DNA from: a virus
UHGV virus genome: UHGV-0198005
DNA: 12,292 nucleotides
Strand: one strand, 5' to 3'
The notes under the pieces were generated by a model. The model worked only from the letters and a program-made list of their open reading frames with translations. It was not told the origin of the DNA and made no database searches. Shown piece after piece: positions 1,945 through 8,631 of this stretch; the first letter of the stretch is position 1, and each line of letters starts with the position of its first letter. A program made the translations under genes and the position numbers.

Positions 1945-1970
1945 CGGGTATCACAGATATGACAAACACG

Positions 1971-2003
1971 AAAAAAGCGGCCCCGATATGGAGCCGCCTT
2001 TCT
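1971..2003. terminator. Bidirectional intrinsic terminator (GCGGC-N11-GCCGC), strongest for minus-strand transcripts (A6 on the plus strand = T6 on minus)
   Basis: Hairpin 1977-1997 flanked by AAAAAA upstream and CTTTCT downstream, located between convergent alpA (+) and the minus-strand operon ending at 2093. Confidence 0.5.
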
Positions 2004-2092
2004 GAACAATTAACCCGCTGCGCCTTATGTGTATATGATCCCAAACATAAGCACGGGGATGATAGCCGCTATCAGGCTGGTGGGCAATGCAA

Positions 2093-2281
2093 TCAGTCTG
2101 GTTCAGTTCGTTGCCATACCTGCAATGAGCGCTTTTCCCTGTATTCTTTAAGGAATTGCTCAAGGGCAAAAGCACATGGCGCGAATCTTTCTGATTCATG
2201 CTCTATCTTTCTGCGCCGTCTTTTCCGTGCCGGTGATAATGTTTTGGTCAATTCTTTATCGGTCATTGTGTTGTCCTGCAT
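2093..2281 (-). CDS. Hypothetical small basic protein (62 aa), second gene of the minus-strand regulator operon
   Basis: ORF lies 42 bp downstream of the RHH-like gene on the same strand and is followed by the terminator at ~1971-1997. Arginine-rich stretch SPARKRRRRK. No clear ribosome-binding site. Confidence 0.35.
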   Translation of the reverse strand: MQDNTMTDKELTKTLSPARKRRRRKIEHESERFAPCAFALEQFLKEYREKRSLQVWQRTEPD

Positions 2282-2323
2282 AGCAATGCGCCGTAATACC
2301 TTACACCACGGCGCTGATGGTGA

Positions 2324-2629
2324 TTACTCTGGTTCTTTGGTCTTGCGGCGCTGGAGTTCTTCACGTGCGACAGTGACGAGCTGCCCGATCTCCTCGGCGG
2401 CTTTGATTCCGAGTTTTTCCACCTGCGCCAGTGCATCGTGCGAAGAAATCAGGGGGTTTTCTCCGCTTCCTTCTGCCTGGCGGCGGGCGATTTCACCGCG
2501 CATGGCGGTTACTATGAATCCGGCGTTGCTTTCACCGTCCAGTTTTACGGATTCCATGCCTTCAATAACATCATGCGGGATCCGAGCTGTCAGTGATTGT
2601 GATTTTGCGTTTTTTGAACCTGTAGCCAT
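2324..2629 (-). CDS. Ribbon-helix-helix-like DNA-binding protein, candidate island repressor/regulator
   Basis: ATG at 2629 preceded by GAGAGGA; the ORF track's upstream TTG at 2644 is less likely. N-terminal SQSLTARIPHDVIEGMESVKLDG fits the RHH beta-strand/helix pattern (inference from motif, not searched). Divergent from the rightward operon across an operator-rich region. Confidence 0.6.
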   Translation of the reverse strand: MATGSKNAKSQSLTARIPHDVIEGMESVKLDGESNAGFIVTAMRGEIARRQAEGSGENPLISSHDALAQVEKLGIKAAEEIGQLVTVAREELQRRKTKEPE

Positions 2630-2644
2630 CTGTAATCCTCTCAA

Positions 2645-2825
2645 TGAAAGTGTAAGACAATATACACATAAAAAGTCTTACATAAAAGCATTGACATGTA
2701 AGCCACCTATAAATAAAGTTACTTACACCTTGTTAATGCAAGGTGCAGAAACGACGAAACCCCGCACTGTAGGAGCAGTAACGGGGCTTCTAACCACCAA
2801 CGATAGCAAGATTATCGAGGCAGCT
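2645..2825. promoter_or_regulatory. Divergent control region: two similar operators built from TGTAAG half-sites (O1 2651-2682, O2 2697-2728), sigma70-like promoter (TTGACA 2691-2696, 17 bp, TAAAGT 2714-2719) reading rightward, plus IR CACCTTG-N6-CAAGGTG
   Basis: Half-sites and promoter hexamers read directly in the sequence; the arrangement is classic for a repressor-controlled lytic-type operon. Confidence 0.5.
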
Positions 2826-3026
2826 ATGAGAAATTATACCATACACCCGCAAGGGCGGGACTCGTACAACCTGAATAAATACATCTGGCGTTTTATCGCC
2901 CTGAGCACGGCACAACCGCGCGTGATTACCATCGAGGCCACCAGCGAACAGGAAGCGCGTCAGCAATCTCCGGCTGGCTGCGTGATGGTATTTGCTGCCC
3001 GTATTCGTCAGGGGGTAGGCTTATGA
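2826..3026 (+). CDS. Hypothetical protein (66 aa), first gene of the rightward operon
   Basis: GAGG 5 nt upstream of the ATG at 2826; stop overlaps the next start (ATGA). It is the only protein-like part of the otherwise spurious 355-aa ORF 1959-3026. Confidence 0.45.
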   Translation: MRNYTIHPQGRDSYNLNKYIWRFIALSTAQPRVITIEATSEQEARQQSPAGCVMVFAARIRQGVGL

Positions 3027-3253
3027 GCCAGGAAATCACACTACAACAGGCAGCAGAACGCGCCCACCAAATCGAAGTTATTTGCGCACTGGCAGAGGAT
3101 TACCCTGGCATGATGACCGACAGCGAATCAGGGGCAATCATCGGCTTACTTAAACGCCTTAGCGGTGAGGTCTGCGTATTCCTGAGCGATGAACAGGAAA
3201 GAAGAACGCTTATTTCTAACGAAAAAAAATGCGGAGGGGTACATGTGCAATAA
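3023..3253 (+). CDS. Hypothetical protein (76 aa)
   Basis: ORF translationally coupled to the preceding ORF (ATGA overlap); helical, acidic composition. Confidence 0.55.
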   Translation: MSQEITLQQAAERAHQIEVICALAEDYPGMMTDSESGAIIGLLKRLSGEVCVFLSDEQERRTLISNEKKCGGVHVQ

Positions 3254-3464
3254 AACCACACCGGACGCAGCAGCCGCCGCGCTCACTACGCTGATGCACG
3301 CGCTTATCGATATTGAATGCACTGCAGAGCTTGCGCAGGGAGAAGAACAGAAAGACCGGACACAGTTCGCCCTGGAATGTATCCGATACATCGCAACACG
3401 GTCGCTGAATGACGCTAAAAATATTCTTGTTGCTGATTGTGAAAATGGGGGGGGTTATGCGTGA
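3243..3464 (+). CDS. Hypothetical protein (73 aa; start chosen at the ATG with a GGAGGGG ribosome-binding site)
   Basis: GGAGGGG 5 nt upstream of ATG 3243. The ORF track's longer version (3189) starts inside the previous gene. Confidence 0.5.
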   Translation: MCNKTTPDAAAAALTTLMHALIDIECTAELAQGEEQKDRTQFALECIRYIATRSLNDAKNILVADCENGGGYA

Positions 3465-3678
3465 TGATCGTTTTAATTCCCTGAAACAGGAATTTTCCGG
3501 CGTTCCTGATGATGCGGCTGATGCGCTTTCGTCAATGCCAGAACTTATTAGAGCGGCTTTTTTCTTACTTTCCACGAGAGAATATAAATCAACGGGGCTT
3601 GATGTACTGAATATCGCCGCCGATTATGCTGATTTCGTGACAGAGGTTATTTTAAGAAAAACGACGGACGGGGATTAA
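3457..3678 (+). CDS. Hypothetical protein (73 aa)
   Basis: ATG 3457 overlaps the previous stop (ATGCGTGA) and is preceded by a G-rich Shine-Dalgarno-like run. The ORF track's upstream start (3409) lies inside the previous gene. Confidence 0.5.
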   Translation: MRDDRFNSLKQEFSGVPDDAADALSSMPELIRAAFFLLSTREYKSTGLDVLNIAADYADFVTEVILRKTTDGD

Positions 3679-3679
3679 T

Positions 3680-3913
3680 ATGCGTGATATTTACCACGAA
3701 ACAATAGACCGCGCATTTCTTGCACTTTCTCACAGTGAAAACATGCTGGAAATATTGCGCATATGGCTTGAAACACTTGGCGACAATGAACGCGACAAAC
3801 AAAAATCAAGAATTGCCACGGCATTAATAACGCTTCTTGAGCCTGTAATAATGGAACTGCAAGAAATAGATCTATTGCACGATAGATATAAAGAACAGCA
3901 CACCGGAGAATAA
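3680..3913 (+). CDS. Hypothetical protein (77 aa)
   Basis: ORF with GGGGA upstream, tightly packed in the operon; helical composition. Confidence 0.55.
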   Translation: MRDIYHETIDRAFLALSHSENMLEILRIWLETLGDNERDKQKSRIATALITLLEPVIMELQEIDLLHDRYKEQHTGE

Positions 3914-3918
3914 AAATA

Positions 3919-4218
3919 ATGAAACTTAAATATTCTGGCTTAACTGCCAGTGGCAACACTCACCCTAAATTTACGCGCGGCGATATTTACCGCGACCAGT
4001 ACGGCGGCACGGTAATGATTAAGGGCGTGGCGGGACGGTGCGTAACTTACCGCCGTGAAGGTTACGAATATGATTGCGTGATGCCTGTTTATCAGTTCCG
4101 GCGTGATTTTTCTCTGGTACAGACCGCGCCGCATAACGTGCCCACCAGCAACGCCAGGGCACGGGCAAACATCCAGAAGCTGAAAACCATGATTAACGGA
4201 TTCAGGGGTAAAAAATGA
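3919..4218 (+). CDS. Hypothetical protein (99 aa)
   Basis: ORF with GGAG upstream; stop overlaps the primase start (ATGA). Confidence 0.6.
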   Translation: MKLKYSGLTASGNTHPKFTRGDIYRDQYGGTVMIKGVAGRCVTYRREGYEYDCVMPVYQFRRDFSLVQTAPHNVPTSNARARANIQKLKTMINGFRGKK

Positions 4219-5969
4219 AACTGGCACCGAACGTAAAACAGCAGTCACGCGGCATAAAACACAAAGGAACAGAAGTCATTATTTTTGCGGGTAGTGATGC
4301 CTGGGCACACGCGAAACAATGGCAGGAACATGATGCGCGTATGGCCGGAGATAATGAGCCTCCTGTGTGGCTTGGGGAGCAGCAGTTATCAGAACTGGAT
4401 AAGCTGCAAATTGTGCCGGAAGGCAGAAAATCCGTGCGCATATTCAGGGCCGGATATCTTGCGCCAGTAATGATAAAGGCGATTGGTCAGAAGCTGGCGG
4501 CGGCAGGCGTACAGGATGCAAATTTTTACCCTGATGGTATGCACGGTCAGAAGGTGGAGAACTGGCGCGAATATCTGGCCCGTGAGCGCCAGAATCTTTC
4601 TGATGGTCTGGTCATTGAGCTTCCGGTAAAGCAAAAGGCGCAACTTTCGCAGATGGCGGACAGTGAGCGCGCGCAGCTGCTTGCCGATCGCTTTGATGGC
4701 GTTTGCGTACATCCTGAAAGTGAAATCGTTCACGTATGGCGCGGCGGGGTATGGTGTCCGGTCAGCACAATGGAACTTAGCCGCGAAATGGTGGCGATCT
4801 ATTCAGAGCACAGGGCCACTTTCAGCAAGCGCGTAATCAATAACGCCGTGGAAGCGTTAAAAGTTATTGCCGAACCAATGGGCGAGCCGTCCGGCGATTT
4901 GCTGCCGTTCGCCAATGGTGCGCTTGACCTGAAAACGGGGGAATTTTCCCCGCACACGCCGGAGAACTGGATCACCACGCACAACGGCATTGAGTACACG
5001 CCACCAGCACCAGGGGAGAACATCCGCGATAACGCGCCAAACTTTCATAAATGGCTTGAGCACGCAGCCGGAAAAGACCCGCGCAAGATGATGCGTATAT
5101 GTGCCGCGCTGTACATGATTATGGCGAACCGGTACGACTGGCAGATGTTTATTGAGGCCACCGGAGACGGCGGGAGCGGTAAAAGTACATTCACACACAT
5201 AGCCAGCCTTCTGGCAGGGAAACAAAACACGGTAAGCGCTGAAATGACATCGCTTGATGATGCTGGTGGGCGTGCGCAGGTTGTCGGGAGTCGTCTTATC
5301 GTCCTGGCAGACCAGCCGAAATATACAGGCGAAGGAACGGGCATCAAGAAAATCACGGGCGGCGACCCCGTGGAAATTAACCCGAAATATGAAAAGCGTT
5401 TTACGGCGGTAATCAGGGCGGTGGTGCTGGCAACCAATAACAATCCGATGATATTCACCGAACGGGCCGGAGGTGTGGCACGTCGTCGGGTGATATTCCG
5501 GTTCGATAACATCGTAAGCGAGGCAGAAAAAGACAGGGAGCTACCGGAAAAGATCGCGGCTGAAATCCCTGTCATTATCCGCCGCTTGCTGGCGAACTTT
5601 GCCGACCCTGAAAAGGCACGGGCTTTACTCATTGAACAGCGTGACGGTGATGAAGCACTGGCAATAAAGCAACAGACGGATCCGGTTATTGAGTTTTGCC
5701 AGTTCCTGAATTTTCTGGAGGAAGCACGCGGCCTGATGATGGGCGGCGGTGGCGATTCAGTGAAGTACACGACCAGAAACAGCCTTTACCGCGTCTATCT
5801 GGCGTTTATGGCGTACGCAGGCAGGAGCAAACCGCTAAACGTAAATGACTTTGGCAAGGCTATGAAGCCAGCCGCGAAAGTTTACGGACATGAATATATT
5901 ACGCGGAAAGTTAAAGGAGTAACGCAGACTAACGCAATAACAACAGACGATTGCGACGCGTTTTTATAA
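4215..5969 (+). CDS. Replication initiator: primase/helicase with phage-plasmid primase P4-family (D5_N-like) region and P-loop NTPase domain
   Basis: 584-aa ORF. Walker A GDGGSGKST (EATGDGGSGKSTFTHIASLLAG) and a putative Walker B LIVLAD; upstream NGALDLKTGEFSPHTPENWIT resembles the D5_N/primase-C motif. Immediately followed by an iteron array. Confidence 0.85.
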   Translation: MKLAPNVKQQSRGIKHKGTEVIIFAGSDAWAHAKQWQEHDARMAGDNEPPVWLGEQQLSELDKLQIVPEGRKSVRIFRAGYLAPVMIKAIGQKLAAAGVQDANFYPDGMHGQKVENWREYLARERQNLSDGLVIELPVKQKAQLSQMADSERAQLLADRFDGVCVHPESEIVHVWRGGVWCPVSTMELSREMVAIYSEHRATFSKRVINNAVEALKVIAEPMGEPSGDLLPFANGALDLKTGEFSPHTPENWITTHNGIEYTPPAPGENIRDNAPNFHKWLEHAAGKDPRKMMRICAALYMIMANRYDWQMFIEATGDGGSGKSTFTHIASLLAGKQNTVSAEMTSLDDAGGRAQVVGSRLIVLADQPKYTGEGTGIKKITGGDPVEINPKYEKRFTAVIRAVVLATNNNPMIFTERAGGVARRRVIFRFDNIVSEAEKDRELPEKIAAEIPVIIRRLLANFADPEKARALLIEQRDGDEALAIKQQTDPVIEFCQFLNFLEEARGLMMGGGGDSVKYTTRNSLYRVYLAFMAYAGRSKPLNVNDFGKAMKPAAKVYGHEYITRKVKGVTQTNAITTDDCDAFL

Positions 5970-5982
5970 TTTGTTGCAATGG

Positions 5983-6208
5983 CTGTCTACCCTGTCTACC
6001 TGAGTAAAGAAAAATACATTTAATTCAGTGCATTAAGTTAGGTAGATAGCCTTTTTTTACTGTCTACCCACTATCTACCCTCTCTACCTGATTTTACCTG
6101 AATCAGACAGGGAGGTAGACACGGGGTAGATAGTGGATAAAAGCACTCTACCCCGCTGAAAGCCGCGCCATTACTGGCATGAGGGCCACTAAGGTAGATA
6201 GGTAGACA
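5983..6208. repeat. Iteron-type replication origin: at least 11 copies of an 8-9 bp motif (C)TGTCTACC / GGTAGACA(G) and variants in both orientations around an AT-rich core
   Basis: Copies read directly at 5983-5991, 5992-6000, 6041-6049, 6060-6068, 6071-6079, 6081-6088, 6114-6121, 6125-6133, 6146-6155, 6193-6200, 6201-6208; AT-rich stretch 6001-6040. Placement directly 3' of the primase gene matches P4/PICI ori organisation. Confidence 0.7.
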
Positions 6209-7576: not shown

Positions 7577-8631
7577 TGGCAGTCAAAGCAATGGCACTTA
7601 ACACACACCAGCTTTTCGCGTACCTGAATCGCGAGGATATTGCGGAATTTAAATTTAGTCCGCTGTTTACCGCGCTGTTTTTCCCGAACGTGGCGACATT
7701 CAACACGCAAAACATCATGCTGGATACCCTGGACATTGAAGAAGTCACCATGTCGGCGTTTTGTTCGCCTATGGTGGGTAGCCAGGTTCAGCGCGATAAA
7801 GGGTACGAAACCAGCACGATTAAACCTGGCTACATGAAGCCAAAGCACGAAATCGATCCAACGAAAACCATCATGCGCATGGCTGGAGAAGATCCGGCAC
7901 AGCTTAACGACCCTACCTATCGCCGTATGCGCCTGATTACTGGCAATATGCGCCGCCAGATAAACGCCATAAAAGCGCGCGTGGAATGGCTGGCGGTAAA
8001 TGCGGTAACGACCGGAAAAAACATCATTGAGGGCGAAGGCATAGAGCGCTATGAAATCGACTGGAAGATACCGGAAAAAAACATCATAGAGCAGGCCGAC
8101 GGGAAAAAATGGTCAGAGCAGGACAAAGAAACCCACGATCCAATCTATGATATCGAACTATACGCCGATCAGGCTGGTTGCCCCGCAAACGTCATGATTA
8201 TGGGCGTTGAGGTATGGCGAACGTTACGCAGCTTTAAAAAATTCCGTGAGCTGTACGATCTTTCCCGTGGTTCAGAGTCCGCCGCAGAGCTGGCCTGTAA
8301 AAACCTGGGCGAAGTGGTGAGCTTTAAAGGCTATCTGGGCGATATTGCCCTTATCGTCTATTCCGGCAAATACACTGACAGCGACGGCACAGAAAAATAT
8401 TTCCTTGATCCTGATTTGCTGGTCCTGGGCAACACCAACAACAAAGGGCTGGTGGCCTATGGTGCGATTATGGATCAGGAAGCGGTAAGAACAGGCGCAA
8501 CGCAAAACATGTACTACCCGAAAAACTGGATTGAGGACGGCGATCCGGCGATTGAGTACGTGCAGACGCACAGCGCACCGCAGCCGGTTCCGGCAGATAT
8601 TCGCAAATTTGTTACCGTCAAAATTGCTTAA
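7576..8631 (+). CDS. Major capsid protein, lambda gpE-like (HK97 fold)
   Basis: 351-aa ORF aligning along its length with recalled lambda gpE: FKFSPLFTALFF / FKFDPLFLRLFF; PGYMKPKHEIDP / PGYVKPKHEVNP; EDPAQLNDPTYRRMR / EDPQNLADPAYRRRR; RGSESAAELACKNLGEVVSFKGYLGDIALIVYSGKY / RGSNSELETAVKDLGKAVSYKGMYGDVAIVVYSGQY; YYPKNW..GDPA...SAP. Confidence 0.92.
   Translation: MAVKAMALNTHQLFAYLNREDIAEFKFSPLFTALFFPNVATFNTQNIMLDTLDIEEVTMSAFCSPMVGSQVQRDKGYETSTIKPGYMKPKHEIDPTKTIMRMAGEDPAQLNDPTYRRMRLITGNMRRQINAIKARVEWLAVNAVTTGKNIIEGEGIERYEIDWKIPEKNIIEQADGKKWSEQDKETHDPIYDIELYADQAGCPANVMIMGVEVWRTLRSFKKFRELYDLSRGSESAAELACKNLGEVVSFKGYLGDIALIVYSGKYTDSDGTEKYFLDPDLLVLGNTNNKGLVAYGAIMDQEAVRTGATQNMYYPKNWIEDGDPAIEYVQTHSAPQPVPADIRKFVTVKIA

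Follow-up and report, generated by a model that had tools for sequence, protein, structure and literature searches.

The closest described counterparts of the locus presented here, six small genes at positions 2826-4218 of the virus genome UHGV-0198005 (12,292 nucleotides (nt), a stretch called the window below), are the early operons of Escherichia coli phage-inducible chromosomal islands (PICIs), of the satellite P4 and of phage P1. Among the PICIs, induction and mobilisation by helper phages have been documented for EcCICFT073 and EcCIEDL933 (PMC6092414; preprint 10.1101/2022.09.08.507074). In both, an integrase gene is followed by genes for an AlpA-type helix-turn-helix (HTH) protein, a YlcI/YnfO protein and an Icd-like protein, by small open reading frames (ORFs), and by rgdR and the replicase gene (Fillol-Salom 2018, Alqurainy 2022). 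An rgdR gene was present in every E. coli PICI analysed (PMC3378721, PMC6092414). Two representatives of the protein, ECs1581 (RgdR) and C1493, act as activators of LEE1 and of type III secretion and as repressors of motility (Flockhart 2012, PMC3378721), and the binding of RgdR to DNA is weak and non-specific (PMC3378721). The left operon of P4 runs from the leader RNAs (IsrK/seqA, CI/C4) through kil, epsilon, orf151 and orf106 to alpha. In the immI operon of P1 (c4, icd, ant1/ant2), icd overlaps ant and, according to the P1 record, is apparently required for ant expression. The window has the gene order of the two PICIs, and its six genes probably represent the early, replication-proximal operon of an EcCICFT073-type PICI of E. 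coli.

Identity and setting of the island

The region 2600-4300 is 100% identical to sequences of E. coli Nissle 1917, ATCC 25922 and related B2 strains, and parts of it are carried by 1,791 of the 5,426 complete E. coli genomes (about one third). In Nissle 1917 the island, which is identical to the window, adjoins tRNA-Pro and yejM. [quoted passage not shown] The operon region shows about 96% nucleotide identity to the model satellite EcCICFT073, and the proteins of the second, third and fourth genes (O2, O3 and O4) have the same accessions in both.

The assignment to the PICIs was made because of the RefSeq annotation of the identical Nissle island together with this near-identity to EcCICFT073. 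The integrase, the AlpA-type regulator and the replicase lie in one orientation, the element falls within the usual size range of about 10-15 kb and occupies a specific site at a tRNA gene, and a full set of phage structural or lysis genes is absent from the annotated Nissle island. The island is not classed with the P4-like satellites: none of sid, delta and psu is annotated in it, and C4/IsrK RNAs and an epsilon homologue were not found either (see below). Within a known family of satellites the operon is an ordinary member; its annotation already exists, and part of it has been published.

The window island differs from EcCICFT073 in its site, since the latter is inserted next to phoQ in CFT073, and also in its integrase and in the allele of its leader hairpin. 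The O157-type islands differ in having another Icd allele, a fused O3-O4 gene and other genes in the middle of the operon.

Layout of the operon

The six genes (O1 to O6) and the start of the replicase gene are arranged as follows.

2826-3026, plus strand: O1, 66 amino acids (aa), same gene in RefSeq
3023-3253, plus strand: O2, 76 aa, same gene in RefSeq
3243-3464, plus strand: O3, 73 aa, same gene in RefSeq
3457-3678, plus strand: O4, 73 aa, same gene in RefSeq
3680-3913, plus strand: O5, 77 aa, same gene in RefSeq
3919-4218, plus strand: O6, 99 aa, same gene in RefSeq
from 4215, plus strand: replicase gene, overlapping the end of O6

An earlier note, made from the letters of this DNA, had described six consecutive ORFs at 2826-4218, each with a Shine-Dalgarno-like motif, as a mostly coupled operon between the control region and the primase gene. 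The six ORFs are present as it described them, all on the plus strand, and are the same six genes that RefSeq calls. In the ORF list O3 and O4 begin further upstream (at 3189 and 3409); conservation as well as RefSeq favour 3243 and 3457. A motif of the GGAG/GAGG/GGGG type precedes each start and lies within the 3' end of the preceding gene, which bears out the description of the ribosome-binding sites. O1 and O2 overlap by 4 nt (ATGA), O2 and O3 by 11 nt, O3 and O4 by 8 nt (ATGCGTGA), and O6 and the replicase gene again by 4 nt (ATGA); gaps of 1 nt and 5 nt separate O4 from O5 and O5 from O6. With overlaps of 4-11 nt and gaps of 1-5 nt, the junctions agree with a single operon reaching from the control region to the replicase, and their geometry suggests that its translation is coupled.

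The ORFs are genes and not chance open frames, because homologues are found in related islands, because they are under purifying selection and because all of them match PHROG families. Nei-Gojobori estimates of the ratio of non-synonymous to synonymous substitution rates (dN/dS) against homologues in related islands were about 0.2-0.5 at dS of 0.4-2 for all six, indicating purifying and not diversifying selection; neither of the refuting outcomes named in the earlier note, a lack of conservation across related islands and a lack of purifying selection, was seen. The PHROG matches of O1-O6 had E values between 1e-12 and 1e-42.

The same note had found none of the products recognisable. This held for O2-O5, for which the profile searches returned PHROG families and no known function, but not for O1 and O6, which belong to known families (Icd-like NF033153 and DUF4222/RgdR, respectively). 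Three homologue searches added no annotation, the matches listed being almost all near-identical E. coli proteins. Sequence searches of solved structures with O1, O2, O5, O6 and fused O3-O4 found nothing below E = 0.01, and none of O1-O6 matched the PADLOC defence models at E values up to 0.1.

Architecture of related loci

The ORFs were traced one by one through ten E. coli islands and some 120 contigs of IMG/VR, giving 127 loci. The contigs were collected with a 17-mer of the leader, because a profile search of contigs for DUF4222 returned solely Shigella and E. albertii loci, and the survey is therefore biased to one leader type.

In nearly all of the 127 loci an Icd-like gene stands first and a DUF4222 gene stands last, directly 5' of a replicase gene for 450-900 aa. 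Between them lie one to six exchangeable small genes (cassettes) per locus, in more than 40 architectures. The cassettes come from at least eight small-protein families with no relationship to one another, which are gained and lost between islands, and they are arranged collinearly as F, O2, O3, E, O4 and finally O5 or E (F and E denote further cassettes). The window shows one of the less common arrangements; in the most frequent one, a single 106-aa protein (phrog_15327) makes up the whole middle. The cassettes end in a short tail that codes for the next Shine-Dalgarno motif, e.g., CAGGrGGTG or GAGGATGTA, followed by ATG. Such stereotyped junctions fit both coupling and recombination at the boundaries.

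O6 and the N-terminal domain of the replicase

O6 (99 aa, basic, isoelectric point (pI) 10.2) matches Pfam DUF4222 (PF13973) with 82.1 bits at a cut-off of 27. It is 91% identical to C1493 of EcCICFT073, with nine substitutions, and 78% identical to the ECs1581-type protein, and like RgdR/C1493 it occupies the slot just upstream of the replicase. Judged by this sequence likeness, O6 is an RgdR orthologue and a candidate for the host-gene effects shown for C1493 and ECs1581. The protein contains TRGD at residues 19-22 and thus RGD at 20-22; within the DUF4222 family Arg20 of the RGD is variable (H, S, N or P), while Gly-Asp is invariant. The predicted fold of O6 is an SH3/KOW-like barrel, and a BFVD fold search with the model matched only uncharacterised or DUF1653 proteins. 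A relationship to the N-terminus of P4 orf151 was rejected; at a probability of 9.7% it is a lead at most.

4215-4589, plus strand: N-terminal domain of the replicase, about 125 aa, conserved, in no Pfam family

This domain shows 63-83% identity across four replicase types whose remaining parts are unrelated. The catalytic parts behind it are of the D5_N/DUF5906 superfamily 3 (SF3) helicase, the AAA_25 RepA-like and the DUF927 kinds. Because four unrelated replicase types keep the domain, the constant block of these loci is considered to consist of RgdR and the replicase N-terminal domain. The product called a primase in the earlier note has matches limited to D5_N, DUF5906 and Pox_D5, with no recognisable primase domain.

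O1, the first gene

The operon is headed by the gene of a small basic protein (66 aa, pI 10.0), residues 19-62 of which match the Icd-like family NF033153 of NCBIfam (69.9 bits, cut-off 25, E = 1.4e-19). Aligned with P1 Icd it shows 35% identity over 43 aa (pairwise E = 1e-6). O1 also matches phrog_6196 and phrog_1743, and the latter is matched as well by the C-terminal half of P4 ORF137, the old 'cI' ORF (E = 7e-21), which we take to be the kil region. By sequence, O1 is an Icd-like protein, a relative of P1 Icd and, through the common profile, of P4 Kil. A direct relationship to P4 Kil was rejected, as BLASTP gave no alignment and the link runs solely through phrog_1743.

The start of the operon therefore resembles both reference systems in part. 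As in P1 immI, the operon begins with a gene of the Icd family that shares an ATGA overlap with the gene following it; unlike immI, the window lacks a C4 antisense RNA, none of the downstream genes encodes an Ant-family antirepressor and the operon ends in a replicase gene. With P4 it shares a first ORF in the same PHROG (phrog_1743), a long structured leader and a run of small ORFs, with 8-nt overlaps, into the replicase; it differs from P4 in lacking C4, c4-a1b1 and IsrK RNA and any homologue of epsilon or DUF5375 in the operon. No similarity of P4 orf106, orf151 or epsilon to the window proteins survived profile comparison.

Among phage records, O1 and O6 match just two small ones, vB_KppS-Ant (16.5 kb), which has a satellite-like gene set, and KpnBHU6 (8.6 kb), which is unannotated and of satellite size. 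Some islands (L003 at 2798-3259, L086, L093 and L126) have a second, longer Icd-like gene of about 153 aa directly 3' of the first.

In frame with O1, an open frame of 355 codons (1959-3026, plus strand) runs antisense across the promoter and the YlcI/YnfO gene; its first part (1959-2438) is labelled a partial 'Icd-like' pseudogene in RefSeq. Gene calls for long proteins named 'Icd-like' or 'ash family' extend over the leader in other genomes. These long calls over the leader look like annotation artefacts. In P4, Pfam Phage_ASH matches the N-terminal half of ORF137 (residues 21-84), overlapping the CI/C4 RNA locus at 8420-8507.

The middle genes O2-O5 and the G-run between O3 and O4

O2-O5 encode small acidic proteins (pI 4.4-5.0) with no match in Pfam, NCBIfam or PADLOC. 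O2 (76 aa, pI 4.8; phrog_1478, E = 3e-28) is an optional cassette. Its relatives, with 38-41% identity, are found in Fels-1 and in temperate phages of Klebsiella, where they follow the repressor gene in the early-left operon. O5 (77 aa; phrog_2196, E = 8e-42) had no tblastn match in 50,697 phage records, and its family comprises 9 clusters at 50% identity among 1.84 billion representative proteins; it is lineage-restricted. In the slot just 5' of O6 the O5 family is the commonest occupant, with 44 of 76 distinct proteins.

O3 and O4 are acidic, helical proteins of 73 aa each. The former matches phrog_5146 and the N-terminal half of phrog_2512, the latter, which has its own ATG, phrog_24341 and the C-terminal half of phrog_2512. 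Both are spanned by one ORF of 154 aa in O157:H7 islands, and all 120 homologues listed (of 495 found) are fused proteins of 144-161 aa. O3 and O4 are thus the halves of one gene of about 154 aa in most related islands. The AlphaFold2 model of the fused form is a helical hairpin at low confidence (pLDDT 57).

3447-3454, plus strand: G8 homopolymer at the O3/O4 junction, coding for the terminal Gly run of O3 and serving as the Shine-Dalgarno-like element of O4

The length of this run decides the form of the gene. With G7 or G10, O3 and O4 are fused, whereas with G8, as in the window and EcCICFT073, or G9 they are split; the G8 allele has the two ORFs with the 8-nt overlap, and the G9 allele is called a frameshift by RefSeq. 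BLAST searches with the G7, G8 and G9 versions of the junction gave bounds on their frequencies: among the 655 E. coli genomes with the full junction, G7 occurs in about 324-399, G8 in 105-180 and G9 in at most 75. The O3 and O4 halves are also found as free-standing cassettes beside others, and in loci L006 and L011 an O4 homologue stands alone after a different cassette, again behind a G6/G7 run. To us the split looks like a state that is tolerated and may be switchable, and not like decay, because behind the G-run O4 has in every case retained an ATG of its own and both halves are free-standing elsewhere.

Three proposed relationships of the middle proteins were rejected. O2-O5 are not tandem paralogues, as an all-against-all hhalign comparison of eight small-ORF families gave probabilities below 3%. 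The O5, 106-aa and short E families do not form one superfamily 5' of O6, since their profile similarity is limited to the common junction tail. Likewise, O3 was not retained as a relative of P4 epsilon: a BLAST match (E = 0.001 in a five-protein database) was followed by an hhalign probability of 11% over a 23-residue motif and by no Pfam match.

Promoter and leader RNA

Upstream of O1 lie the following features.

2324-2629, minus strand: YlcI/YnfO-family gene, 101 aa (NF041551, 72.6 bits, cut-off 30; RefSeq)
2691-2719, plus strand: sigma-70-like promoter, TTGACA-17 nt-TAAAGT, 10 of 12 consensus matches
2726-2745, plus strand: first leader hairpin, an inverted repeat CACCTTG-6 nt-CAAGGTG at the predicted transcript start (sequence and minimum-free-energy fold)
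2757-2789, plus strand: leader hairpin HP1, with an 8-bp outer and a 3-4-bp inner helix (covariation)
2790-2820, plus strand: C-rich tail CUAACCACCAAC and hairpin HP2 (2797-2820; minimum-free-energy fold)

The support for the promoter comes from conservation and not from the promoter scan, because the scan was overall not enriched over shuffles: the -35 element TTGAC(A/G) and an A/T-rich -10 element (TAnnnT) are kept in related islands with differing flanks. The YlcI/YnfO gene has the same position in most related islands, and the N-terminus of its product appears, by inspection, to be ribbon-helix-helix-like. The protein is a candidate repressor of the operon promoter.

The structured leader (2726-2825) of about 100 nt separates the promoter from O1. 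At the position of the first hairpin, AAGGTG/CACCTT inverted repeats occur in many related loci, in both orders. HP1 is a conserved leader hairpin backed by covariation and belongs to no Rfam family. In 30 diverse loci, 8 of its 11 pairs change on both sides, and 91.9% of the paired alignment cells hold a pair, against 84.0% in shuffles (none of 500 reached the observed value) and 31-42% with the partners slid. A covariance model of HP1 scored 32-50 bits in L005, L010, L015 and L016, islands that lack the 17-mer and have a different Icd allele, and found no match in P4, P1, Fels-1 or a Klebsiella phage. The leader as a whole had no Rfam match in a search that recovered C4, c4-a1b1 and IsrK in P1 and P4. 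A C4/IsrK-type antisense RNA in the leader was rejected, none being found at E values up to 10, with the P4 and P1 controls at 75 and 69 bits.

The predicted hairpin HP2 (CC-AA-CGAUA, a 7-nt loop, UAUCG-A-GG) would pair with the Shine-Dalgarno motif GAGG of O1 at 2817-2820. Like the C-rich tail, it is invariant in the 30 loci and so provides no covariation, and the search pattern had predetermined its 5' arm. L009 carries two copies of the leader motif, at 1775-1861 and 2523-2591.

Proposed mode of action and alternative explanations

Taken as the early operon of an EcCICFT073-type PICI, the locus may work as follows. Transcription would proceed rightwards from the sigma-70-like promoter that faces the divergent YlcI/YnfO gene, and ribosomes would translate the chain of genes as a unit, as the examples of P1 and P4 suggest, so that replicase synthesis would follow the translation of the small genes. 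O1 may transiently arrest host division in the manner of P1 Icd and start the coupled translation, and the acidic middle proteins may bind host or helper proteins. RgdR may modulate transcription or the initiation of replication at the island, together with the replicase N-terminal domain, in which case the reported LEE and motility effects would be a spill-over. Several points weigh against this scheme. The promoter is a consensus match, and its control by AlpA or YlcI/YnfO is a candidate relation. The coupling is read from gene geometry, and neither O4/O5 nor O5/O6 overlap. Division inhibition by O1 is extrapolated from the 43 residues that are 35% identical to P1 Icd. A literature search found no experiment on O1-O5 in any PICI, and the published work on RgdR covers host-gene effects alone, under plasmid expression (PMC3378721).

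Other explanations assign the same genes different roles. The earlier note had expected helper-sensing, helper-interference or anti-defence functions at this early position, and accordingly O2-O5 could be helper-specific or anti-defence effectors, i.e., small acidic inhibitors of helper repressors, helper proteins or host defences, comparable with P4 epsilon and anti-restriction proteins, whose array sets the helper or host range. The content of cassettes does vary widely between otherwise similar islands, all four proteins are small and acidic (pI 4.4-5.0) and essentially satellite-specific, the P4 helper derepressor epsilon stands at the equivalent position, and relatives of O2 are found among the early-left accessory genes of temperate phages. 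However, PADLOC returned no match, the similarity to epsilon failed profile comparison (11%) and the Pfam family Derepression gave none. Moreover, dN/dS of 0.2-0.5 and identical O2-O4 at two chromosomal sites are unlike an arms race, and the related capsid-forming PICI (cf-PICI) EcCIEDL933 does not reduce helper titres according to published data. The expected role thus gained no positive support, and for O2-O5 we consider it rather unlikely. A similarly tentative explanation is that RgdR, and perhaps O5, are replication accessory factors acting with the replicase N-terminal domain, for instance in origin recognition or helicase loading, and that the host effects are secondary, as side effects of a basic DNA-binding protein. 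This would suit the ATGA coupling of O6 directly upstream of the replicase in almost all loci, the same N-terminal domain of about 125 aa kept beside O6 by four replicase types, and the weak, non-specific DNA binding of RgdR (PMC3378721). On the other hand, the published activation of LEE1 is promoter-specific and motility is repressed by both ECs1581 and C1493; the interaction is a predicted one, and the adjacency may mirror recombination boundaries rather than function.

Lower still in probability is the explanation that a frameshift has broken one gene into the halves O3 and O4, leaving the operon partly in decay. In its favour, the majority of copies are fused, with about 154 aa, and RefSeq labels the G9 allele frameshifted. 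Against it, an estimated 105-180 complete genomes carry the G8 split, which is also seen in several independent assemblies of Nissle and ATCC 25922 and in the mobilisable EcCICFT073. Furthermore, O4 has retained an ATG of its own and a G-rich Shine-Dalgarno-like element, the two halves stand alone beside other cassettes, and both have dN/dS of 0.2-0.4 against distant homologues. Just as improbable, taken jointly, is an operon that acts as a switchboard between helper and host by means of a new leader RNA class, neutralising acidic cassettes and a G-run switch. If it were true, HP1, the ACCACC tail and the helix hiding the Shine-Dalgarno motif would stand in for the C4/CI antisense system that P1 and P4 have, and the leader would gate translation of the Icd/Kil gene and, by coupling, of the whole replication operon. 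Each variable acidic cassette would then neutralise a different helper or host protein, and the slippery G-run would toggle O3-O4 between the fused and split forms as a contingency locus.

With the six genes placed in the early operon of the PICI, four points are of interest: four widespread uncharacterised proteins, the cassette organisation, the fusion/split polymorphism at the G-run and an undescribed leader RNA motif. The genes occur in the probiotic strain Nissle 1917, the reference strain ATCC 25922 and EcCICFT073, yet four of the six products are uncharacterised; genetic tools already exist, because proteins are identical in EcCICFT073. The conserved, uncurated leader RNA may bear on how helper phages switch on Gram-negative PICIs. 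RgdR may be primarily a factor of the satellite life cycle and not a virulence regulator, because it forms the invariant end of the array, tied to the replicase N-terminal domain.

Other sequence features

Between the AlpA-like gene and the convergent minus-strand genes there is a strong GC-rich hairpin (1971-2003) with T-runs on both strands, which looks like a bidirectional terminator. If it terminates, transcription from alpA is unlikely to continue into the six-gene operon of this island. Upstream of the AlpA-like gene, at 1631-1717, lie tandem 20-nt repeats, TAAAAACGGTGTATACCGTT and TAAAAACGGTGGGAACTGTT, with an inverted copy at 1698-1717; these repeats are candidate operator sites.

An unannotated ORF of 61 aa (2093-2278, minus strand) downstream of the YlcI/YnfO gene matches phrog_21027 (E = 1.5e-15), and the islands L002, L009 and CFT073 have small annotated genes on the minus strand at the corresponding place. 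Downstream of the replicase gene there is a near-perfect palindrome of about 82 nt (6056-6137), which gave a spurious mir-135 match in Rfam on both strands and may be part of the island's replication origin.

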